Shown: positions 8,386 through 62,355 of the stretch, in pieces
Layout of the letters: every line of letters starts with the position of its first letter
How positions within the stretch are numbered: position 1 is the first letter of the stretch
Assembly: GCA_000002445.1 (NCBI GenBank)
Contig: CM000207.1
Location: 288,001-352,000, forward strand
Length of the DNA: 64,000 bases
Direction: 5' to 3'
From: Trypanosoma brucei
Taxonomy: Eukaryota
The notes under the pieces: generated by a model
Told to the model about the DNA's origin: nothing
The model's input: only the letters and a program-made list of their open reading frames with translations
The model's database searches: none
Program-made: the position numbers and the translations under genes

Positions 8386-8774
8386 GAAAACAAAACGCCA
8401 AAATGTTTTCCAAAAGAGAGCAAAGAAGACAAGAAAAATGGGCATAATGGGAAAACGTAAACTAAAAACACCACAGGAAACACTTCTTTTGTCATTCATA
8501 TGACCCCTCTTTTGCTTGCGCTTTTGATTCTATAATTTAAATTCTAAATTATTTTTTCCAATTTTCTCAAATTTTATATTTTGAGAGAATTGCTATATTT
8601 GTGATATTTTAAAGTTGTTGATGAAAATGTGCAAATTCGTTTAATTTTTTTAAAAATGCGACATGTGTGCATGATAGCTATCTATCGGTGTAAAGTACTA
8701 TGGTGACAGGTTATGGAAAATTAGTGCTTTTCTACTTTGTTTATATAGTTTATTTTATGGATATTAGTCAGGAT

Positions 8775-8850
8775 TATAATAGTAAGGATACGGATAGAAA
8801 AGTGTTGTGAGTGCGTATGTACAAATAATATAGTAATATAGTTGGTGAAG
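8775..8850. repeat. Single degenerate VSG-upstream 70-bp repeat
   Basis: The string gtgttgtgagtgcgtatgtacaaataatatagtaatatag resembles the GT-rich plus AT-rich core of the 70-bp repeat. Confidence 0.5.
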
Positions 8851-10346
8851 CCTTAGTAAACGACCAAAAAGTGACTAAACTAATAACAATGAGAATATTT
8901 GAGAGTACTGGACAGTGATTAATGAGTAGAAAAAAAATATTATAAAGGAAAAACAGAAAGACAAAGAGGTGTAAAAATAGAGATGGCATAAGCGTATTTT
9001 TAAACGAAAACATGACGATGTGTATTATTATGGTATAACTGAAATACGAAACAGTGGAGCAGCTAATGAAAGACGAATAATTCGTTAAATATGTGTTTTT
9101 AAGTTAATCCAGTCATCTGAGAGAGACAATCGAGAAGCATGCAATTGCACAAAAACCTTGCAAAACAAAAACAACACCAAATTTGCAAAATGTGGAAGGA
9201 AACATATGAATGCGGCTAAACACCAAAATAAAAGCGCTTTTGTATAAAAAAAATGCAACAGCAGTGAGATTTAATGGTGACCAGGTAAAGGAAAATTGAA
9301 AAAGTTATTAGACAGAATAAAGCTTTTCATTGTTTCCTAGACTGACAGAATGTGAAGATGCGAAAATTCAGCTCAAATTGAAAATTTAGTGTGTTATAAA
9401 AGACATAGCTTAAAGCATGAAAATTGCTTTTATGTTAAAAGATAAAAACCGCTAGTAAATACTCACTTCAAATAAACACTTCGTCCCCTTAAACATTTTT
9501 GTACAGTTAAGCCTAGAAGACAGCAAAAAGGACGACAATGAAATTGGGCTTACACAAGCAGAAAGATTGCACGTGAACAACAATCGCCGTATTGAAACAG
9601 TTTTACGTACTACCACAAAAACAATTCAGTAACAAAACATCACGGAAACAATCTGGACACCAGCGAACCAGCAATATACGAGGCAAAGTTAAAACCCAAA
9701 CTTACGATGGTGTCTGGGACAATTCACGAACTCGCTAAGAACCAAAAGCAAACAACTCTAAAACCGAAGAGGAGAGTCGTTTTTACACATAAATAGGTAA
9801 TATCTGCAGCGGCAATTAGTAGTTGAGCTTTGCACAGAGACATAATGCGAACATACTGTTGAGTAGAAATAACCATGGGTTCAACCAAAGCATCAGAGAA
9901 CCTGTATGCGCTATTTTCAAGCGGAAGGTATCGTCCAATTTAAATTTAGCAGCAAACAGAAGCATCGGGTGACTACAGCGGGCAGACTCATAGCTATTAC
10001 AAGTCTGTAAATGTTATAACCCACTTTGAGCCCTCTTTTGTGTGACATAATACTATAAGAGAGCAAAGGTTCAATTCAACCTCAATACAACTGTGTAAGC
10101 AGACATCAACAGTAGGTTCACAGACTCTGAACAAAGCACCACCGTGAACGTAGATGGCAACGATCCTCGCCATATATATTCTCTTCTTTGCACAAATAAC
10201 CTCTCTCAGTTTTCAATACCACCGATGCTACCATACCAAAAAATACTATCGAAATACATTTGCTAACGCTAATACAACATGAAAAGCAACCCTACTTACT
10301 ATTCCAGATCCAACTGAGCCAGCTAAGGGAAGCTAGAAGTGAGAAA

Positions 10347-11895
10347 ATGCGGTATTCAGCACTGCACAGTTGCCTCTGGGCCATGTTTCTCTTACTTTTC
10401 CATGAACTAAATGTGGACGCGACTTCAAAAGGCGCGATAAATGGCGACAAGTGAAAACCGCTGTGCACACTAACCAAGGACGCAGTCAAAGTGTATAACC
10501 GTGCACTCAAGCTCCAAAAATTAATTAGGGACTACACCAAAGCGGCCAGCAAGCTGACTGTAGCAGCAATCGCTGCAGCGGAGAAGCTGCAAAGCACAGA
10601 CGCCACCGCGGCAACAATAGGACTTGTGGCTGAGATAAGAGAGCAGCTGAAAGCAAACAACCAAAAGTCGGAAGGTTCTACAAAGTGGCCGTAGAAACAC
10701 CGGCCTTCATGGGCTACACGCACGGACTGATAGCCGAATTCTTAGAAATAATGGGCCACAACAGAGGAGCATCGAACTACGGGTGCCTAGCAAAACTAAG
10801 CTCCCCGAATTCGCCGGCCACCGAAGCAGCAGCAGCACTATTATCGACCTGCAAAATCAAGCCGGATGACATAACAGCAGGAAGCGAACCGACGGCAGTG
10901 CTGACCAAAGCAGGTTTTGTCGGTATGGACGAAGGCACAGGCCTCGTCGCCGGTGTTCTCACGACCGGCGGCAACGAACACTGTGACCTAACGTCAGCCA
11001 CAGCAAGTGCCTTAAACTCAGACACAGGAATACAAGAAGATATTCCGTTCGCAGACGGCTATTTCCTAAAAGGGCCAACCAACACTGCTCAAACAAGTCA
11101 CCCCATAAATTCGCTGTCAAAACAAAGGGAGGAACTCCCAAACAAGGGCCAAAATCAACAATATGTGAGGCTGTGTGACAAGTACGTCCAACTGGAGAAA
11201 TGTGAAGCGGCTTTCAAAGAGGGGTTTTCGAGACCCGAAGCAGAGACACTCAAACAGTCAGGAGCAGTATTAACAGCCCTGAAAAACATAATCGACAACA
11301 AAAGCGGCGAATATGACCCGAGTAAAGACGGCGGCCAGATCAAGACCATGGCTGAGAAATTGTTCAAACCCGGCGTGGACAACTACCCAGAAAAGCTATA
11401 CAAGGAAGTACAAGCAAAGACGTTGACAAAAATACTGATGGCGGGCAACACAGCAACGAGCCTGGCGGAACTGGAAACCCCAATAGACCTGCAAATCGCA
11501 CAAATATACTATATACAACGCAAGATCGATGGTTTTACCGCAAAAACTAAAGGAAGCTGAGAAACAGCTTTCCAAGGCTAAACTGGGTGATTATGGAGCA
11601 GCCGCAGCAGAAGATGCCTGCAATAAACTAGATGGCGAACAAAAATGCAGTTACGAAACGGCAAGTGATGGGACTAAAAAGTGTACATATAATGCAAGCA
11701 AAGCAAAAGCAAACAACGTCCCTGTAGCACGAACTCAAACAGAATCGGCTGAAAAAACAACAAAGAAATGTAAAGGTAATAAAATGGATGACTGCAAGTA
11801 TCCGGATTGTAATTAGGAAGGTAAAACTTGCAAAGACTCTAGTTTTCTCTTCAATACGAAAACGACTCTGATGGCTGCAACTTTTCTGTTTTTTT
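10347..11895 (+). pseudogene. VSG pseudogene with multiple frameshifts and an in-frame stop before the GPI signal
   Basis: A signal-peptide start MRYSALHSCLWAMFLLLF lies at 10347. Collinear ORF pieces follow at 10491-10694, 10685-11560 and 11529-11816. A VSG C-terminal-domain segment (...CNKLDGEQKCSYETASDGTKKCTYNASKAK...) is followed by a TAG and then a GPI-signal-like tail (KDSSFLFNTKTTLMAATFLF). Confidence 0.8.
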
Positions 11896-26700: not shown

Positions 26701-29190
26701 CGAGCTAGGCGACATTAAAGTGGACGCGCCGGAGAAGGACAAGAAGGTGAATACCATGCGGTGGGTACAGCGGTCCAAGGACTATGACAACCAGGTGTGG
26801 ACAGAAGGGTCCGTGGTGCTGGACGTTTCGTCAGACGCAGGTACCCTTGTGCACCCAAAGGAGGGGAAGAGGGAGAAGGTTGTGCTGGGAGCTGGGCCGC
26901 CGGCCTGCAGCTATCGCGCGGAATGTGTGGCGATGGAGGCGGGGTTGAAGAGGCTAGCTGATTTCATGGAGCTAAAAAAGACGCACAGAACGAGAGTTGT
27001 GGCCTTCACGGACTCACTGTCGCTGTTGATGGCGCTGAGTACTGGCTGCGGTGGTGGAGAACGCGATTCTGAGACGTATTTGGGACCTCATCTTGCGTAT
27101 TGTGCGGTTTCGTGTATCCATCCACTTCCAGTTCGTGTTTTCGAATTGCGTGGTGCTACGCAATGACGCAGCTAACAAGGCAGCCGAGAAGGGAAACACA
27201 AAGCTGCAGTCGTATCCAGCATGGATCACGGACGCAGTCACAGGTATAGAAAGGCAAATCCGTTGCGAAAGGAACAATGAATTCAAGGAGGGAAAAACAT
27301 CACAAGGACACCGCAGTGTTCTCCTCAACTATATTAAACCTACGCAGAAAAAACAAAATGGACAAAATAGGGGAATAACTACAAGTGCAATTTAGAACAG
27401 ACACCTCGAAACATTTCGGATGGCTACATCGTGTGCTCAAAAAAACAATGGAGAACACTAAGTGTACGTTGTGTCGTTGTGAATTAGCGAAGTAGGAGAG
27501 AAGTGATAAGATGAAAAAGATAAGTACACAAAATGATAATACGAAGACGCAGTCATCACAGGTGGACGTGCGACATAATGAGCCCATAATATGCCCGTTG
27601 TGCAACGTGGTGTGTGCTCGTCGTCAAGCTGGAGTAGTGCGCCTGATGAATATACACAGTTGGAAAAGAGAAATGGCACTGGAAATGACAAGGATTGCAA
27701 AATTGGCAGTACAGGAGTATAAATGTAAATACAGCTGCCATGTTTGTGAAATGGATTTTGAGAGGTGAGGTTTACTAGTGGAGCACATGGTCACACACAA
27801 ACACGCACGCCCCGGAAATAATATCGCAGGTTGAAAATCAACAGAAAAGGAGCATAAAAGAAGAGGTAGATTCGGAAAGACAAAAGCTAACGTGTCGATG
27901 GTGCCACATTGAATATGTGTCGTATGGATGGTTAAAAAGGCATATGCTAACAAAAAATCCTGAATAGCAGCAAACAGAATACGACAAAAATTAGAATCAA
28001 CAGGCAGAGCATGGCACGGAGGATACGGATATTAATGAGGAGAAACTGGAGTGTCAAAGGTGTAAAATGGTGGTAAAGAGTAAAACTTGGTTGAACAGAC
28101 GCGAATGCATTCGAAATCAGGCAATACTACAGGAGACTTCAAAGAGACAGAAAATCAACTTAAAGAAATATGCTGCACATGTGGAAAGGAGTACCAATAC
28201 AGCTGGTTGCTTCGTCATATGCATAAGAAGAACCCAGGATACGATGAGTCTTTGAGGCCAAGGATGTGAGTGCAGAATAGAAAAGTCAAGAAGGAAACGA
28301 AAAGGGAAGTTAGCGATAACAGGAAAGCAGTGCAGGGTGCAGGGGCAACAATTGATGGGAAAAACCGGGAAAAAGGCCAATAATAGGGAGGCACACAGAA
28401 GTAGAAGAAGGAAGAGATTTTGTGTGTTAGGTAAAATAGTGCATACAAGTCACAATACTCACTGTTATGGCACACACAAACACACTATAAGGGCGCTACA
28501 AATGTTCAAAGAAAGATGAAAGATGACTCGCTAATAATAACTCCTACAATGCAAAGATTACTTCAGCGCCCATACTGCCCAATGAGATGCACACAGAAGC
28601 AGCGCCTCACAATGTATCTACTGGCGAGGCACGGACAGCCGAAGAAGGAAGCCGCGCACAACTTTCTGATGGTCTCATGTGAGGAGTCATCTGTGCGTCT
28701 GCTGGTGCGACAGAAACTTCTGCCAACAAGGAAAAACACGGTGTGGAACACCTTGAAAAAGAGGAAATACATAAAAGTGAACAGATACCAGGATTCCTAA
28801 AAGATCTCTTGAAGGTAAAGGGCCGCGATGAACCCAATCTATACACTCACAAAGAGAAACCCACTCGGGAAGTGAAAATGGGAAGATCGCCAGAAAAGTT
28901 GGATATCCCATCCCACCCTGCGCAGCCTTTGGTAATACAGACAGTCTCTCATATGGAGGGGAGAAAACGCCCTAGCAAAATGTTTCCCCCGTACAGGCAA
29001 AGAGGGGTACAGTTTCGATGGAAGAAGCGAGGACTGAATCGGGGCTATATAAACATCTTCCAAAGATGTGCAGAGAATAGGAAGTAGCAGATAAAATGGG
29101 GAAGCACATGCACATTAAATGCACAACGAAAAATGCACATATTCCATTTCTATTTCTCTCCCCCCGTCTCACTGAGCTATCTTTTAAAAA
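23747..29190 (+). mobile_element. Degenerate ingi-related retroelement (DIRE-like) on the plus strand; the 3' boundary is approximate
   Basis: The 5' end CCCTTGTGACGGCGGTCACCTCATCGTGGTGCAAGGGTC aligns with the ingi 5' terminus. The domain order matches ingi but the ORF is shattered: a decayed 2A motif (GDVKQNPSP), an endonuclease (24174-24596), RT (25491-26195, FADDLTIV), RNase H (26393-27395, WTEGSV...SYRAECVAMEAGL...FTDSLSLL) and C2H2 fingers (27511-28269). The 3' end is placed at the A-run near 29185. No convincing TSD was seen. Confidence 0.6.
23772..28269 (+). pseudogene. Shattered endonuclease/RT/RNase H/zinc-finger ORF of the degenerate ingi-related element
   Basis: Many short plus-strand ORFs in all three frames are each homologous to successive parts of the ingi ORF at 3390-8365 (minus strand). 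Confidence 0.6.
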
Positions 29191-29858
29191 ATATTCCTCG
29201 TGCTATTCCTCTCGCACTCACTTGCTCTTTTACATTGCGCCCTCGGAGTTGGCTTAAGTGCCCCTATTTTGTTTAGCGTCGTTGTGTGCCACCGCTCATA
29301 TCATAAAATTAGTATGTACACTTACATGGCACACCCAATATTACATACTGCTATTACTGTCGTAACCTTAAACTACTCGTAATATCTATTATTAAAACAA
29401 AATAAGCCAAAATAGAAAAAGTTATAATAGAACCCATTTTTCATACTTTATCGCAACACTAAGCTATACCCACAAGTCAAAAATATCTGAAAACATTTAA
29501 GTACTTTCGCATTTTCAAAAACAAATATAAAATTAATCGAATAAACCATAGCTGTAAAAATCCTAAATGGCACTCATTTTCAACACTTCATCAACATATC
29601 ACTTTACATTCAAATATCAAAATTGTACAACAGCAAAAAAAGATCTCCCAAAGTTTCCACATGTTTGCAAAAAGCGCTGAAATACAAACGCACATTTAAG
29701 AATTGTATAAAATATTTTCAAAATGGATGTAAATTTATCTAGTTTATTTCGGCAAAGATGCAAAGTTTCGTACAATAAGATGTTCCAAAAAAAAATCCAC
29801 TACATTAATACATTTCCAAAAAGAAAATTCCACTACATTAAGATACTCCAATAAATTT

Positions 29859-31439
29859 TTATGCTAGGAGCAAAAATGCCATGAACAGAGGAATACTCAT
29901 CAAAGCAGAAATGCCAACTGCACCGTCACAAACTCCATCCTCCCATGTGCAGTCTTCTTTACAGTCTTCCTGCTGTATTGCTTTGCAATTTCCTTCTTGT
30001 CGTGCCATCATCCACTGAAGTGCTCTGGGCCATTTCCGCATTTGAGTTTCGTTCTGTTTCTTTGTGTCTTTCCTTTCGTCTGATTCGCATCTACCTTTTT
30101 CCTCGTTGCCTTCCCATGTGCATTCGCCACTGCAGTCCTGTTTCCCCTTACCACTGCAGCCCGTTTTGGTGATTTCAGTTTCGTCTGATTGTGCTTGCTT
30201 TGCCTCTTCTGTTGGTCTTTGATCTTCCAGATAAATTAGAGCCTTCTGTGCGTTTTTGTTTCTAACCGCATCAAGGAGTGTTTCAGTTACGAATCCTGAG
30301 CCAATGTGGTACGTCACGTTCTTAGTCCACAGAACTTTTACGAAGTCTCTGGTGAAGTTTTGCTTATCCCCCCCGTAAAGTTTTTGAAGTTGCGCTTCGA
30401 CGCTGCTTCCGGCCGAGGATTTACCTCTTGTTTCGTGAAAGAAGCTTTTGAACGCGAGTTGGACTTCGGTCGTGTTTGCTAACGTGACAGGCGTTAGACT
30501 GGATATGGTTATTATCTGAGGATCGGGTTCTTTTATGTATTTGCATAACTTGTTTATCAGTAAGTCGTTATCTTTTTCTGATTTCGTCGATTCATTTTGT
30601 ATCACAGCGCAATTTGTGCTCGAGTCGCTACCCTCGAATATCCTAATCGGCTCTACAGTGATGAGGCTGTCTTTTTCAGTCGTCGATGCCTCGAATTTAA
30701 CATAATGGTCACCTTTCAGCAGATGTCCACACCTCTCAACTAATGCTTCTGCGCTTTCCGGTCCCTTCGTTTTTTTAATCTCAACCAGATGCGTTATTCC
30801 CAGTGGTCTTAGTTTGCTGCTATTTAGCAGTTTGATATGCGTTGCTGTCTTCAAGTTAACGGAAATTCCTTCTGGTTGGCTGTTATCATTGGTTCGGTGT
30901 GCACAACTTCCGTCGCCGCGTAATATCGGTGTTTCATCGCCAGGGCATTCTCCTATGGATACGCTGTAGCCCTGTATTTTGCTTACTCCAACTATTGTCT
31001 TCCCCCGAATATTAATCGCCAGCAACGTGCGCGTTAGTGCCGCTCTCCTGTGCAGAAACTTTGCGGTTGCTACCGCTGCCTTGTACTTCCCATTGTGGAC
31101 CCGCCTTGCTGTCGCCGCTGCGGTGGACATGTACGCGGCAAGGGCATACGTCGCGGCCCGTTTCTCTGTTTGGTTTGTAACTGCGGCAAGAAGATCCCAT
31201 GCCTCTGCATAAATTTGCATGTCGGATATTTCGCGCTCCTGCCTTTCTGCCGCCGCTACGATGCGATTTGCGAGGTACTCCGTATACTTAGCCTCTGTGC
31301 AGAGATTTGTCACCTTGTCAGAAGATGGCTCTGTTACTGCTTGCGCCTGGCAACACCTCGACAATAACATGAGTAGCGCGGGCACACCTGCTGCAACAGC
31401 TGTGTGCGATATTACTTTGGTAGCGGTCTGATTTTGCAT
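29859..31439 (-). CDS. VSG-like GPI-anchored surface glycoprotein gene (526 aa), intact, on the strand opposite to the VSG array
   Basis: This is a long uninterrupted ORF. The N-terminus carries a hydrophobic segment (AAGVPALLMLLSRCC). The C-terminus is Cys-rich (CSGKGKQDCSGECTWEG...CKEDCTWEDGVCDG) and ends in a hydrophobic tail (ISALMSIPLFMAFLLLA) with no cytoplasmic domain. I did not find a canonical 16-mer in its 3'UTR, so it may be an atypical or VSG-related gene. Confidence 0.6.
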   Translation of the reverse strand: MQNQTATKVISHTAVAAGVPALLMLLSRCCQAQAVTEPSSDKVTNLCTEAKYTEYLANRIVAAAERQEREISDMQIYAEAWDLLAAVTNQTEKRAATYALAAYMSTAAATARRVHNGKYKAAVATAKFLHRRAALTRTLLAINIRGKTIVGVSKIQGYSVSIGECPGDETPILRGDGSCAHRTNDNSQPEGISVNLKTATHIKLLNSSKLRPLGITHLVEIKKTKGPESAEALVERCGHLLKGDHYVKFEASTTEKDSLITVEPIRIFEGSDSSTNCAVIQNESTKSEKDNDLLINKLCKYIKEPDPQIITISSLTPVTLANTTEVQLAFKSFFHETRGKSSAGSSVEAQLQKLYGGDKQNFTRDFVKVLWTKNVTYHIGSGFVTETLLDAVRNKNAQKALIYLEDQRPTEEAKQAQSDETEITKTGCSGKGKQDCSGECTWEGNEEKGRCESDERKDTKKQNETQMRKWPRALQWMMARQEGNCKAIQQEDCKEDCTWEDGVCDGAVGISALMSIPLFMAFLLLA

Positions 31440-41259: not shown

Positions 41260-42873
41260 CTACGCACTGGGGTGCATGACCTGTTTCACCATTTTTGTGA
41301 AGAGCCATAGTTGCGACTCCTCCACAGGGGTAGTTGAGCCCCTTGTTATCAGTTCATGAATCCGTGGCCTCTGTTCATTTTCGGAACCATGTGAAGAAAA
41401 CGAACTTGGAACGCAGAAAGTGACACCGTATTTTTTCAACATGGAAGGATCCGCCTGCACTTGCTCAAATATGGCATTCCATGTCTTTATGTCCCCTTGA
41501 CGAATGACGTGGACATAGTATGTGTCTGCCCTCCGCTGTAGCTCTTCTTGGTCACGCAAATAAAGTGGTAGTATTTCCTCAGATGCGTCGGTATCGACGA
41601 AGAAGCTCGTGCGCTCATCATATGGGGCAAATATGTCTTTCGAAAAATGTGTGGGAGAAAACTTACCCTTCTCCCGTGAGAGATCTTGTGAACCCACACC
41701 GGCTACCTCCAATTTTTTGATACTCTCCAAACGCCGAACTCGTCCACCCAACGCTGCCGATTTATCATTAAGGAGTCGAAGAAACTCCGAAACATTTGCT
41801 GAAGTTACCTTCATATGAATACCATTGGGAACAAGTTCAACCAACTTACCACCACGTGGCACACTAAAGGTTAGGTTCTGTTGTGCGATTGCTGGGCCAA
41901 AGATGTGACCATTTTTGATTGCCTCCACTTTCGCTTGGAATTCAGCTTCTGATACCACGACACCAATGAGGGTGGCATCCACTGGATTGGGTTGTTGTAA
42001 CATTATCTCGGAGGGTGAGGGATATTTTTTGACGGCACCGATGTTGGAGTTAAGAAGGTCACTATCCGCAGTGGAGGGAGGGGAAAAGAGTTGATCAAAT
42101 CGCTCTTTTTTGGCGTCAGAAGCACAAACCGCAACCGCAGCACCTTTAGGACGACTGCCGTGCCTGGTGTTTACATCGCAGTGCCGTGCCATTGTTGAAA
42201 TTTCTGTCACACGGGCATTGCGGTACCGTTGTATTTTCTCCAAGTACATTGGTATATCATCGTAGCTCACATTAATCGTAGATCCATTCTCAATGAGCTC
42301 ATGGACGGTGCCATCAGGTAGTGGTGCCACCCACTTCAAGTCTGCCTTCTCGAAATCCTCCCGGTTATGCGTGAGGAGGGCGTCAAGTTGACTAAAAAAA
42401 TCCCTGTTTGATGTTGGAGAAAGCAGCACCTGCGGTTGCTCGGTAGCATATAAGGCGTGGTTTCCAGTTCCTTTATCCCCCACAATTGGAACAGGCGCAG
42501 ATCGCTTCGAAGCTTCCTTGAAACTTAACGATGGTGCGCTGTTTTTTCTCTGGATTTGATCACTGATAAAGTCCATTGCCGTCTGTCCCAAATTCACTTC
42601 GCAGATGTCAGCAACAGTAAAAAGAGACACCGCCAGCCGACCAATTAAAGTTCTCACTTCCTCCTGTTCGAATCGAGATAGTGAGAGAGCGCCTTCACCC
42701 TGTTCTGCAAGATTAGACAACTCGCCTACACCCGACATCATTTGCAGTAATAAACGGCATAAGGATTCATTATTTGCGTTGATACCCATTAACTCCATTC
42801 GCTTCCTGTTTTCAGTGACAATGTCTTCAATAACTAGCATTCGCCTTGGTTGGGAGGCATCTCTGAATACCAT
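41260..42873 (-). CDS. Hypothetical protein (537 aa), possibly a partial HECT-like fold
   Basis: The segment VHELIENGSTINVSYDDIPMYLEKIQRYRNARV resembles the HECT N-lobe motif eheLkpgG..i.VT.eNk.eYv.l...yrl. No catalytic Cys region is evident. The function call is tentative. Confidence 0.5.
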   Translation of the reverse strand: MVFRDASQPRRMLVIEDIVTENRKRMELMGINANNESLCRLLLQMMSGVGELSNLAEQGEGALSLSRFEQEEVRTLIGRLAVSLFTVADICEVNLGQTAMDFISDQIQRKNSAPSLSFKEASKRSAPVPIVGDKGTGNHALYATEQPQVLLSPTSNRDFFSQLDALLTHNREDFEKADLKWVAPLPDGTVHELIENGSTINVSYDDIPMYLEKIQRYRNARVTEISTMARHCDVNTRHGSRPKGAAVAVCASDAKKERFDQLFSPPSTADSDLLNSNIGAVKKYPSPSEIMLQQPNPVDATLIGVVVSEAEFQAKVEAIKNGHIFGPAIAQQNLTFSVPRGGKLVELVPNGIHMKVTSANVSEFLRLLNDKSAALGGRVRRLESIKKLEVAGVGSQDLSREKGKFSPTHFSKDIFAPYDERTSFFVDTDASEEILPLYLRDQEELQRRADTYYVHVIRQGDIKTWNAIFEQVQADPSMLKKYGVTFCVPSSFSSHGSENEQRPRIHELITRGSTTPVEESQLWLFTKMVKQVMHPSA

Positions 42874-54651: not shown

Positions 54652-57156
54652 TCACGCCTTTACAGAACCATGAAAGAATTGGGTCGAAAAAAGAGCAAAA
54701 AAGAAACCAAAAAGGCGATTATGCCGCTTATCTTCACCAATAGGTTCTCTAGAATCCGCTGCAACATCACTACTGAGTGTTGACCGAGGGCGTGTGAGAT
54801 GTTGCCACACCCACCTTACAGGTTTGAATTCCCGCTCAATTACTAATATCCACTGCCAAATAACAAAAGCAAACACGGGATACATGGGCCACAGTAACTT
54901 TGCCTCAGCAGTGTAGATGGCCTCCATGCCTTCACCAATAATGTAGCTAACAAACTTACCGAGTTGAACGAGCCCAGCGATGCAGGCCACAGATAAAGCA
55001 TCTGCCGCACACCACGACGCGGTAACAGAACAATTCGGGTAAGTAATGGCAAACAGAAATGGAACCAACACCGTAGTAAGAAAACAAACTGTCAAGATGG
55101 TAAACGACCCGGATGTGAGTTCAAACATTGCCATGTCACGAGAGTCAGGTTGCACCACCGAGGCCAAGCCACCCACGTTGTATCGCAAACAAGGTATAAA
55201 CCACATAAGCAACACACACACAGCAGTGGCAGCGCCATTTAACCCACGTAATACAAATCGCATCAAGTCACACTTTTTACCCTTTGATGAATTCGTATCA
55301 AGTTCATCATCTCTTTCTGCTTCAACCACATCATTCTCACTGTGTGATGGTTCCGACGGACTGCACTTCTGATCCAGTCGTACGGAAGTATTACGACGCC
55401 ATAGGTATAAAGCATAGTTTCCGACGAAAATTGTGAGAATTGTAGCGAAGAGGAAACAGTAGAATCCAGGTCGAATGTGCACCTCCGCTATCCCCGATAA
55501 CTCCAAGCCCCCGACCATCACAACCATCGCAAACGTATCAATGAAAGAAAACTTGCCTGTACAGTCAAGTAACCTCACGAATGCATGTTGAGGTTTTCGA
55601 AAACCAAGAGTGCATACAAGGATGCATAACAGTTTCACATATGGATAAACTCCGCTAAAAAAGAAAAAACCGATGGCTAGGTCAACATGTCCAGCTTTGA
55701 AAATTTTGCTGGTGATTTCCATCAAAGAGAGTTGCAACATATTAAATTCACCTCCCACCACAACTGCGGCAGCTGTCGTGCTGTTGGACCACACAAGTAA
55801 GAATGTAGCACTTAGAGTAAGCAACAACAACAGACCATCCTCAGTAAGTGCTCGGCATTGCGAAATCGGTGAACCATCAGCCAGTGTTGCGGGATCCTTT
55901 CGATGTCGGTAGATGCTCCAGCAAATACCCAACGCGAATGCAACAACCGACATACAAAGTGCGGTAAGCCAAAGCGATAGGGGAGGTACATCACGTACTT
56001 CAGCAGCATGAAGCAAGGGAAGGGGTCGTCGCTCCTCCCCAGCAGTACAGTTCGATGCAAGCACAGAGTTAATAAGGCTCTCCACATGTGGAAGCAACAG
56101 ATCTTCCATATTGTTGCCAGCCACCTTGTTTATATCACCAAGACCGACCGTTCTCAAATTCTGCAACAACACAGCATCGGAACACGGTATGGTACAATTT
56201 AGTTTCGCTTCATCACTGCAGCGAACATCCGTCACCACAACATCCATAGACATGGTAAAACTACTCGGAATGTCAACTACTGCATTAGTGACATTCACGG
56301 CAGGAATCATTTGACTAATATTGGCCACAAGACCATCCAGTGAAAGAGCTTTTAGTGCGTCTTCCACAGAAGCCAGTAAAGAGGATATCGCAGGAGATAA
56401 GGCACCATCCTCATACAGAGTCATGTTCACACCGTTCGGCAACGTGAAGTTCGTACGAGTAGCAGTGTCTTCGTGCATTTTCGCACCGAGACGAACACCA
56501 AAAACAACAGGAATATTGTTTACAACATTCGTCACACCCCGGAAAACTGGAGTAGTGTTCAAGACAACAGCGCCATCAACAGGGGGAGGAGCTGGTTTCT
56601 CCGGCTTCACTTCACTTATCACAAATTTATTCCCCAGTAACGGAAGGTGCGCATTGCATAATAGTGTTTCGGATTTTTCTTCAATTATGTACTGCGCAAT
56701 AGGTTTGAACATCTCAAAAAGTTCAAATTTAGGAACCATATTAATGTCATTCACCTTCACATTAAGGCTGCAGCGGTCCACAATGAAGTTTGTAGTAAAA
56801 CAAAGGTCGTCTAACTCCCTTCCGACGGTGATCTCGTTGAGGTGCACAGCCAAGTCAACAGTAATATTGGTTGAAGCAGCCCCCAATTGAATGCCGGCCG
56901 AACACACAACATTGGAAGGTTGGTCTATTTTCACAGAAAGTTGCGAAGAGTTGAGTGTACCACTACCTTCACCGATGCTGACGCGTGAACATGAGGCGTT
57001 ATCCAACTTCACCGTCAAGAAGGATGTCGAAAGACCGGGAAATTCGAGACCCGTCAATAATACCGAGCTCCACCACACGGCAAACAACGGACATGCAGCT
57101 GACATTATTGGACAGGAGGTAATCGAGTCAATCCCTTTCCGTGTGTTTACGGACAC
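54652..57156 (-). CDS. Hypothetical multi-pass membrane protein (834 aa) with a signal peptide and large N-terminal luminal or extracellular domain
   Basis: The N-terminus is hydrophobic. About 400 aa carry many N-x-S/T sites, followed by at least eight hydrophobic helices in the C-terminal half. Confidence 0.6.
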   Translation of the reverse strand: MSVNTRKGIDSITSCPIMSAACPLFAVWWSSVLLTGLEFPGLSTSFLTVKLDNASCSRVSIGEGSGTLNSSQLSVKIDQPSNVVCSAGIQLGAASTNITVDLAVHLNEITVGRELDDLCFTTNFIVDRCSLNVKVNDINMVPKFELFEMFKPIAQYIIEEKSETLLCNAHLPLLGNKFVISEVKPEKPAPPPVDGAVVLNTTPVFRGVTNVVNNIPVVFGVRLGAKMHEDTATRTNFTLPNGVNMTLYEDGALSPAISSLLASVEDALKALSLDGLVANISQMIPAVNVTNAVVDIPSSFTMSMDVVVTDVRCSDEAKLNCTIPCSDAVLLQNLRTVGLGDINKVAGNNMEDLLLPHVESLINSVLASNCTAGEERRPLPLLHAAEVRDVPPLSLWLTALCMSVVAFALGICWSIYRHRKDPATLADGSPISQCRALTEDGLLLLLTLSATFLLVWSNSTTAAAVVVGGEFNMLQLSLMEITSKIFKAGHVDLAIGFFFFSGVYPYVKLLCILVCTLGFRKPQHAFVRLLDCTGKFSFIDTFAMVVMVGGLELSGIAEVHIRPGFYCFLFATILTIFVGNYALYLWRRNTSVRLDQKCSPSEPSHSENDVVEAERDDELDTNSSKGKKCDLMRFVLRGLNGAATAVCVLLMWFIPCLRYNVGGLASVVQPDSRDMAMFELTSGSFTILTVCFLTTVLVPFLFAITYPNCSVTASWCAADALSVACIAGLVQLGKFVSYIIGEGMEAIYTAEAKLLWPMYPVFAFVIWQWILVIEREFKPVRWVWQHLTRPRSTLSSDVAADSREPIGEDKRHNRLFGFFFALFSTQFFHGSVKA

Positions 57157-60861: not shown

Positions 60862-62355
60862 TTAGTAGTTGTTTCCATTTTCCTCTTTTGTAAGTTTGCC
60901 TCCATTCATAGCAATCCATCCTTCACAGCATTCAGATCCACAGCAACATTGAAATGGTGGTGTTGTTTCATCCCTAAATAGACGGTAGTCCATTGTAAGT
61001 TCTTCGCCTCGGGCAATATCACGGGTGGCGTAGAGATTCAAAGACCGATTTGGTCCAAAGTTCATGTTGGGAACACAGGAGTGACTAAATGTGCGCCAAT
61101 TTGTTGGCTCATTATCCCAAAGGGCATAGTAATGACCATCTCCACCAAGTGGCCACGCTTTTTGTGCGAACTGATCATACTCCTCTTTTCCCCTCGTCGC
61201 CTTTACATGAGGTTTTGTGTAAAGACGAACCGACTGCCCCTCTGCTTCAAAAATAGGGGATCCTGCTGATATGTCACGCGTAGCGCACATCCGATACCCC
61301 TGTGCAGGGTTATATACGCAGCGGAACAGAGGTTGCATGCGCTCATTCCGTCTAAGGGCCTCCTTTATCTGAAGCAGAGTAAATTCCCTTTGATTGAAAC
61401 CTGGTGTCAAACGCAAGATCCAATCAGCTGATCCCTCTTGCCCGGGTGGATACATGACGCCGCAGTTAGGGTTAATCTCCAAGAATACAACATCATGTGT
61501 CGACCGGTCGATGCGCACATCCACCCTCCCATATCCTACACCTCCCATCATATGCATAAACGATGTTCGTGCTGTGGAAAGGACTTGTGACAACGCAGGG
61601 TCATCTTCCGGCATAAGACGCCACTCCATTCCCTCATATGTTTCCCACTTCAAATGAAAATGTTTGAAATCTTCACCCTCAGGAAATTGCACCATTACAG
61701 GAGGGAAAACACGAATGCCATCAGGTTGCGTGCTGTCTGCACACACAAGTATCGTCGCCTCATCGCCAACAACGAATTCTTCAACGAGAGCAATTTGATA
61801 CTGTTCAATAAAGCGAGTTACACGACTGTGCAAGCTATCCATGTCATAAACTTTGCACGACTTATCCATTCCAACACTGCTGTAACCGGAAACGTGTTTG
61901 ATTATCAGTGGGAATGAAAGCACCGAACATAATTCACGTATATTGTCACCAGCTTCTAAAACAGCATGTTTGGCCGTTTTTATCCTAAAGTAGTGAGCAA
62001 TCTGCTTCATCTCCGGCTTAGATAATTCGTAGTACTTGGAAACTGCACCAGTAAAGGGTACGTGAAAACTCTCGAGGGCTTGCACGACGTCAACACCCGC
62101 CTTGTCCTCGTCTAAAGCTCCGTCACATTGGTTATAAAAGACATCATACGCGCCTGATTTCACAAGCTGACGTATTTGCCGATATGTCGTTGCCTTTTTA
62201 ATGAACGCAAGATCAAAGACAACTTCGTTTTGGTCTTCTTTTGTGAAGTAATGCTGAGGGGTCTGCACAAGTTCTCCCTCGTATGTTTTTAGCTCGCTGT
62301 CAGATCCCTCGTAGGAACAAACCAAAACACAAACCCGAGTGGGTTTGGCCGGCAT
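60862..62355 (-). CDS. SET-domain lysine methyltransferase with an N-terminal ATP-grasp-like domain
   Basis: The C-terminus carries SET signatures NWRTFSHSCVPNM (NHSCxPN-like) and RGEELTMDY, then a post-SET Cys cluster CCCGSECC. The N-terminal approximately 300 aa resemble an ATP-grasp fold, for example GYGRVDVRIDRSTHDVVFLEINPNCGV compared with the D-Ala-D-Ala ligase C-terminal motif. Confidence 0.7.
   Translation of the reverse strand: MPAKPTRVCVLVCSYEGSDSELKTYEGELVQTPQHYFTKEDQNEVVFDLAFIKKATTYRQIRQLVKSGAYDVFYNQCDGALDEDKAGVDVVQALESFHVPFTGAVSKYYELSKPEMKQIAHYFRIKTAKHAVLEAGDNIRELCSVLSFPLIIKHVSGYSSVGMDKSCKVYDMDSLHSRVTRFIEQYQIALVEEFVVGDEATILVCADSTQPDGIRVFPPVMVQFPEGEDFKHFHLKWETYEGMEWRLMPEDDPALSQVLSTARTSFMHMMGGVGYGRVDVRIDRSTHDVVFLEINPNCGVMYPPGQEGSADWILRLTPGFNQREFTLLQIKEALRRNERMQPLFRCVYNPAQGYRMCATRDISAGSPIFEAEGQSVRLYTKPHVKATRGKEEYDQFAQKAWPLGGDGHYYALWDNEPTNWRTFSHSCVPNMNFGPNRSLNLYATRDIARGEELTMDYRLFRDETTPPFQCCCGSECCEGWIAMNGGKLTKEENGNNY

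Follow-up and report, generated by a model that had tools for sequence, protein, structure and literature searches.

The 64,000-nucleotide stretch of Trypanosoma brucei DNA analysed here (contig CM000207.1, positions 288,001 to 352,000 of assembly GCA_000002445.1; hereafter the window, from whose first letter positions are counted) encodes, on its minus strand, a protein in which an ATP-grasp ligase module resembling D-alanine–D-alanine ligase (Ddl) is followed by a SET domain, the fold of many methyltransferases. The gene and its parts are as follows (aa, amino acids).

60862–62355, minus strand: complete open reading frame (ORF) of 497 aa for the Ddl-like ATP-grasp and SET fusion, with an ATG start and the stop codon (60862–60864) included
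61336–62355, minus strand: ligase module of the ATP-grasp type, comprising all three Ddl sub-domains (aa 1–340) and ending in a long helix (aa 322–340) that leads into the SET domain
aa 130–299, minus strand: Pfam Dala_Dala_lig_C match, 46.3 bits against a cut-off of 24
61882–61899, minus strand: KHVSGY (aa 153–158), in which K153 aligns by hhalign with K144 of Escherichia coli DdlB, the ATP phosphate-binding lysine
61459–61527, minus strand: the RVDVRIDRSTHDVVFLEINPNCG motif (RVDVRID...FLEINPNCG; aa 277–299), with R277, D279, E293 and N295 at the places of DdlB R255, D257, E270 and N272
60898–61323, minus strand: SET and post-SET domain (aa 345–486), whose SET-I insert is helical and rich in aromatic residues, and a predicted post-SET zinc cluster
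aa 353–457, minus strand: Pfam SET (PF00856) match, 50.7 bits against a cut-off of 22.4
61066–61089, minus strand: FSHSCVPN, the NHSCxPN cofactor-binding motif (aa 423–430), with H425 and C427 conserved
60985–61008, minus strand: GEELTMDY, the active-site tyrosine motif (aa 450–457), with Y457 aligned to Y124 of the bacterial SET enzyme BurB
60925–60954, minus strand: FQCCCGSECC, the post-SET cysteine cluster (aa 468–477), with C470, C472 and C477

A preliminary description of this DNA, made from the letters alone, had proposed a single ORF with an N-terminal ATP-grasp domain of the Ddl type and a C-terminal SET and post-SET domain. All of this is confirmed. Both domains score above their Pfam curated cut-offs, so that the profile search it had suggested gave a significant ATP-grasp match; the N-terminal part has the three-domain Ddl fold, the SET assignment is further backed by Foldseek and by the post-SET cysteines, and the motifs it had quoted lie at aa 277–299, 423–430, 450–457 and 468–477. 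The remaining checks that it had proposed agree: none of the gene models divides the protein between two genes, kinetoplastids conserve the fusion, and AlphaFold models the ligase and SET domains as one packed unit with confident inter-domain packing.

The protein is 100% identical to the Trypanozoon database entry SCU68485.1/XP_067079639.1 (contig CZPT02000991.1, assembly GCA_001457755.2), publicly named 'D-ala D-ala ligase C-terminus/SET domain containing protein, putative', to which T. brucei entries are 99–100% identical. Seven codons before the ATG, the window sequence has an in-frame stop. The models in T. brucei TREU927 (XP_803440/Q38FZ5) and T. b. gambiense DAL972 differ in length: they have 382 aa and start at M116. 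This difference could be taken as a sign of two genes joined by an assembly or gene-calling error, a reading that we consider effectively excluded. The shorter models are merely N-terminally shortened and retain both domains, the ORF is continuous in the window and its two domains pack confidently against each other, and many kinetoplastids and bacteria carry the same fusion in independent genomes, that of the isolate Chlorobium ferrooxidans DSM 13031 among them. Residues 1–115 (window 62011–62355) are open and intact both here and in the 497-aa models of other strains. Given that they form the N-terminal Ddl sub-domain and hold the invariant family positions L11, K54, D71, N75 and C77, we take the 497-aa model to be correct; as judged from sequence, the 382-aa models are truncated annotations and not evidence of a split gene.

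The domain combination is thus already present in public annotation, and the fusion architecture itself is not new. The preliminary description had called the architecture unusual, which holds relative to characterised proteins but not otherwise, since this is a conserved family already named by both of its domains. No curated NCBIfam model covers the family, and we found no functional study of it in the searchable full-text literature, papers on kinetoplastid SET proteins included.

The ligase half has the three-domain ATP-grasp fold, with the ATP site between the central and C-terminal domains. In a profile alignment (hhalign, probability 98.8) to E. coli DdlB, whose sequence was checked against PDB 2dln and agrees with it fully, K113, K153, S159/S160, E192, E199, K236, R277, D279, E293, N295 and G299 correspond to DdlB K97, K144, S150/S151, E180, E187, K215, R255, D257, E270, N272 and G276, respectively. 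R277, D279, E293 and N295 are, by this alignment, the counterparts of phosphoryl-transfer and Mg2+ ligand residues, and the lysine and glutamate residues expected in ATP-grasp enzymes for phosphate and for adenine/ribose binding are likewise in place. Conservation was counted over 154 full-length family members, all of which have K153, S160, E192, E199, K236, R277, D279, R281, E293, N295 and D311; S160 and the near-invariant G162 belong to the flexible loop directly after KHVSGY. Because the aligned catalytic residues are invariant, the ATP-dependent acyl-phosphate machinery appears to be intact, and the predicted catalytic set of the ligase is complete.

The substrate side is different. DdlB Y216 is replaced by W237 and H63 by C77 (Cys in 151 of 154 members) in the profile alignment, and E15, which binds the amine of the first D-alanine, corresponds to a Ser/Thr (S18) in a manual register of the N-terminal stretch, which lies outside the hhalign coverage. 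From the E15-S150-Y216 triad of DdlB only S150 is retained, as S159/S160, and a family-specific insert after N295 carries the invariant residues Y302 and D311. Every NCBIfam Ddl model scores far below its own curated cut-off (at best 70.4 bits against 243), and the bacterial relatives reach 72–97 bits against cut-offs of 243–246. Since the residues for D-alanine specificity are replaced, the ligase half would work like a Ddl without being one.

Some database names nevertheless imply a real D-alanine–D-alanine ligase fused to a histone methyltransferase. With scores of no more than 70 bits against cut-offs of at least 243, with E15, Y216 and H63 exchanged as above (the first in the manual register) and with the added Y302/D311 insert, we regard a true D-Ala-D-Ala ligase as effectively excluded, leaving it only a very slight chance. 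Kinetoplastids also have no peptidoglycan. As for the histone part of those names, the majority of SET proteins in T. brucei are cytoplasmic (PMC8559703), and nothing links the fusion to chromatin.

In the SET half, H425, S426, C427, P429, N430, D456 and Y457 are all present in the T. brucei protein, and the usual Asn of NHSC is replaced by S424. Across the family, position 424 is Asn in 120 of 154 members, and H425 and C427 are kept in 149 and 144, respectively. Position 457 is Tyr in 136, Phe in 8 and Cys in 2, and each post-SET cysteine is conserved in about 145, with exceptions that are mostly gaps. C427 together with C470, C472 and C477 would be expected to form a zinc site. The helical insert carries conserved aromatic residues, with the consensus W388, F396, W/Y401, W413 and W420.

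The solved protein closest to this SET domain in sequence is BurB: the family profile matches it with an E-value of 2e-19, against 1.6e-15 for MLL1, and a search with the single sequence also favours BurB. BurB, a SET enzyme of 172 aa, methylates free methionine on its sulfur and binds this substrate through main-chain atoms (PMC12542666); for this reason the side chains offer no test of a methionine substrate. SETD3, for its part, is described as methylating a histidine nitrogen. Neither sequence nor fold tells lysine apart from other methyl-accepting nucleophiles. The 'lysine methyltransferase' of the preliminary description was an assumption and lacks support in that form, given the activity of BurB and the change of the NHSC Asn to Ser. 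The apparent kinship with BurB is best treated as a lead and not as family membership.

The fusion family is modest in size but real. Identity to the T. brucei protein is 70–78% in Trypanosoma, 63–65% in Leishmania and relatives and 56% in Trypanoplasma borreli, and the fusion extends to other kinetoplastid-like and further protist sequences, including Spongospora (43%). Bacterial fusions are 33–39% identical over their full length and occur in Bacteroidota, C. ferrooxidans DSM 13031, Caldilineaceae, Gemmatimonadota and Actinomycetota. Among 1.84 billion representatives of 50%-identity clusters, 201 match at E <= 1e-30, and with one genome per bacterial species relatives are encoded at no fewer than 349 loci; no animal protein is among the named matches. 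In a rough neighbour-joining tree, which is indicative only, the eukaryotic sequences form one clade apart from the bacterial ones.

Some relatives combine the same parts in other ways. P0071 joins a second ligase and the fusion in one polypeptide, P0219 reads ligase-SET-SET-ligase, and P0126 carries several SET domains and the fusion; chains of four or five SET domains plus ligase are among the variants. In two relatives (P0221 and P0222) a clostripain-family (C11) peptidase takes the place of the SET domain beside the ligase. The SET-less P0079 and P0088 were rejected as evidence of split genes, because they come from eukaryote-like contigs with fragmentary gene calls. The giant P0135 (6220 aa) was considered as a protein of the nonribosomal peptide synthetase or polyketide synthase type; a motif check was negative, and the low-complexity sequence is probably a merged eukaryotic gene model.

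To describe the bacterial gene context, ORFs were called and clustered in 80 bacterial loci. At about 27 Bacteroidota loci the fusion (~478 aa) is the third gene of a same-strand operon with tight or overlapping spacing, after a stand-alone small SET protein (~165 aa) and a second Ddl-like ATP-grasp protein (~380 aa). The operon fusion is 32–38% identical to the trypanosome protein over its full length, and the second ligase is 25–28% identical to the trypanosome ligase half; it keeps the catalytic set and differs on the substrate side (K113T, K231L, K236L, Y302S and D311G). The best match of the small operon SET proteins is BurB. In 20 loci the fusion is followed by a ~300-aa transmembrane-domain protein of the ATP-binding cassette (ABC) type (PF13748), which has no informative solved relative. 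Cassettes of this type or variants of it lie, for instance, at L013 8255–12535, L017 8211–11437, L010 9470–13760 and L011 3628–5694.

Related arrangements occur in Chlorobium (SET, fusion, full ABC exporter, SET) and Caldilineaceae (SET, fusion), and at a Gaiellaceae locus the fusion is followed by an ABC transporter pair, a class I methyltransferase and a glutamine-synthetase-type gene. Upstream of the operon we looked for a precursor peptide or conserved small ORF and found none. The genes around the cassette vary by locus or are housekeeping genes; the conserved Chitinophagaceae neighbours (PIF1-like helicase, MnmG, YbeY and SSB) belong to the latter and were rejected as mere synteny. Five solitary bacterial homologues share no neighbour partner, and the close SET-less bacterial relatives in Polyangium, Rhodothermia and Anaerolineae have no consistent neighbours. 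To our knowledge, neither the BurB affinity nor this bacterial cassette has been described before.

As a separate observation, a gene of the beta-lactamase/transpeptidase family (PF00144) lies within a few kilobases of several solitary fusions outside Bacteroidota (L001 7351–8424, L003 6727–7857, L004 1295–2080, L005 988–2148 and L006 1066–2226). This association is unproven and could be due to chance.

With a true ligase and a true SET domain in one ORF, the bifunctional modifier suggested in the preliminary description remains the most reasonable reading. More specifically, we suspect that the protein builds and methylates a small amide derived from amino acids, a proposal to which we assign about even chances. 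In this scenario, a cytosolic, bacterial-type bifunctional enzyme would bind ATP and Mg2+ in its ligase module and phosphorylate a carboxylate to an acyl-phosphate, which would then be attacked by an amine to form an amide bond between substrates other than D-alanine. After or before ligation, the SET module would transfer a methyl group from S-adenosylmethionine to a nitrogen or sulfur of the same small substrate, yielding a methylated amide that is dipeptide-like or derived from an amino acid. A substrate with a basic or sulfur-containing side chain is speculation on our part. The analysis shows the fold, the intact catalytic residues, their conservation, and the operon and fusion partners; that both activities meet on one small molecule, in what order, and on what kind of substrate, we infer.

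The evidence supports a modular, bacterial-type toolkit of ligases and methyltransferases, and on this ground we favour small-molecule chemistry: the ligase is nearest to dipeptide ligases; the SET modules are nearest by sequence to the sole SET enzyme for which a free amino acid is a known substrate; the cassette is self-contained, with membrane-transport partners; neither a precursor peptide nor a target protein was found; and the distribution is patchy and horizontally spread. In Bacteroidota the fusion would be one step of a short pathway that also employs another ligase and another small SET enzyme and probably moves its product across the membrane; kinetoplastids would keep only the fusion. 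More tentatively, and with less than even confidence, we propose that the fusion is the sign of a pathway so far unrecognised and spread horizontally, in which Ddl-type ligases and BurB-type SET enzymes convert free amino acids into a dipeptide-like metabolite methylated to a quaternary ammonium or sulfonium form. Bacteroidota would make it with a cassette of four genes and carry it across the membrane, and kinetoplastids and other protists would keep the fusion as the core enzyme.

Several observations weigh against the small-molecule proposal. The alignment to BurB covers only the C-terminal half of the SET domain (query 423–482 to BurB 91–149), and in Foldseek searches with a SET-only model, where MLL1 scores an E-value of 4e-8, BurB has no advantage over MLL1 or ASH1L. 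For the ligase half, the structural matches next in rank are LysX/ArgX and RimK, enzymes that modify the C-termini of proteins. Outside Bacteroidota, Chlorobium and Caldilineaceae the bacterial fusion is solitary and lacks informative neighbours, and the gene order in kinetoplastids is functionally uninformative.

The LysX and RimK matches, and the fact that SET enzymes usually act on proteins, suggest that the fusion could instead modify a protein: the ATP-grasp module would add an amino acid to the side chain or C-terminus of a target, as RimK, LysX/ArgX and TTL do, and the SET domain would methylate a lysine on the same target, not necessarily a histone. We think this somewhat unlikely, though it is the chief alternative to our proposal. 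Ddl/VanA proteins match the ligase clearly better than the protein-modifying ATP-grasps do, and the Pfam RimK and TTL models have no match to the fusion protein. In the operons the fusion is accompanied by a second ligase, a BurB-like small SET protein and ABC-type membrane proteins; neither a candidate target or carrier protein nor a conserved small ORF is among the partners. The patchy spread over distant bacteria and protists fits specialised metabolism better.

The state of the SET domain in trypanosomes also counts against the proposal. The T. brucei-group protein carries W388R, N424S and M465T at positions conserved in 115–120 of 154 members. Between Trypanosoma species the SET half is 57–64% identical and the ligase half 76–84%, whereas other close pairs show equal divergence of both halves (85/83, 86/83 and 70/71). 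Given these substitutions and the faster divergence, the methyltransferase of the T. brucei lineage may be changed or less active. In T. cruzi marinkellei and T. rangeli, moreover, Cys replaces the active-site Tyr. Taken further, such changes would suggest that one module is dead or purely regulatory, as proposed for TTLL12, and that the T. brucei-group protein is a ligase with a degenerate SET domain. We consider this improbable. H425, C427, Y457 and all post-SET cysteines are intact, the ligase has its full catalytic set, and the SET reading frame is kept in every trypanosomatid examined. Variation between Tyr and Phe at the active site also seems to be tolerated, since BurB Y124F retains more than 60% of its activity (PMC12542666).

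The BurB affinity and the bacterial operon point toward small-molecule chemistry and away from chromatin. If the proposal of a small methylated amide is correct, SET chemistry on metabolites would be broader than the single BurB/MSMT example, and the conserved bacterial-type ligase-methyltransferase of kinetoplastid parasites could be a pointer to an unassigned metabolite or a possible selective target. The more tentative pathway, for its part, would bring the clear examples of SET enzymes working on small molecules to just two, and trypanosomes and Leishmania would then make a metabolite that so far has no assigned gene. Not every trypanosome SET protein should be counted as a histone or protein lysine methyltransferase.

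The neighbours of the fusion gene in the window are unrelated to it: a protein kinase, a PqiA-domain protein, a flavin-dependent (FAD) monooxygenase and a HECT fragment. Genes in kinetoplastid polycistrons are not clustered by function. The PqiA (paraquat-inducible protein A) domain, of a membrane-protein family mostly known from bacteria, is found with an E-value of 5e-13 in an 834-aa ORF (54652–57156, minus strand). A 537-aa ORF (41260–42873, minus strand) has only a short HECT match, at aa 326–370 to profile positions 101–148 of 306. Judged by ORFs of at least 200 aa, the coding strand changes from minus to plus near 8.4–10.7 kb (~8400–10700; divergent) and from plus to minus near 27.2–29.9 kb (~27200–29900; convergent), and both changes look like kinetoplastid strand-switch regions. 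Scans of the whole window for tRNAs and Rfam families gave no match.

Compared with Ddl/VanA enzymes (E. coli DdlB, PDB 2dln), the fusion has replaced substrate-side residues, an extra Y302/D311 loop and scores below the Ddl cut-offs, and unlike them it is attached to a SET domain and found in organisms without peptidoglycan. The sequence match of the fused SET domain to BurB of Burkholderia thailandensis (PDB 9l4t/9l4v; PMC12542666) spans the NHSC and DY motifs and the post-SET F-x-C-x-C-G-x-x-C-R-x-x-I-x-G stretch, and the stand-alone SET proteins of the bacterial operons are also BurB-sized. BurB demonstrates that a biosynthetic pathway can include a SET enzyme for free amino acids; however, it is a stand-alone tetramer of 172-aa subunits in a polyketide-related cluster (PMC12542666), and the long helical aromatic insert sets the fused SET domain apart from such small SET proteins.

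The SET domain also resembles those of MLL/SET1, ASH1L, NSD and SETD2 in its whole-domain alignment (profile E ~1e-15, Foldseek E ~1e-7) and post-SET zinc cluster. In contrast to these proteins, the fusion lacks chromatin-reader and complex-binding modules as well as a pre-SET/AWS region, and it differs from histone SET enzymes in its metabolic-type ligase partner, bacterial distribution and operon context. TTLL12, with a SET-like and a tubulin-tyrosine-ligase-like domain (PMC3520985), represents the sole other type of SET-like and ATP-grasp protein that we found in the searchable literature; its TTL-clade ATP-grasp lies C-terminal to the SET-like domain, an arrangement that the fusion does not have. 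Nor did we find the combination typical of graspetides among the ribosomally synthesized and post-translationally modified peptides, namely an adjacent precursor-peptide gene and a RimK/MdnC-like ligase. The L-amino-acid ligases (BacD/YwfE, RizA and BL00235), ATP-grasp enzymes that condense free amino acids to small peptides, provide our working model for the fusion. A possible parallel for a bifunctional synthase is Ngg, the N-acetylglutaminylglutamine synthase, in which an ATP-grasp ligase is fused to a second tailoring activity.
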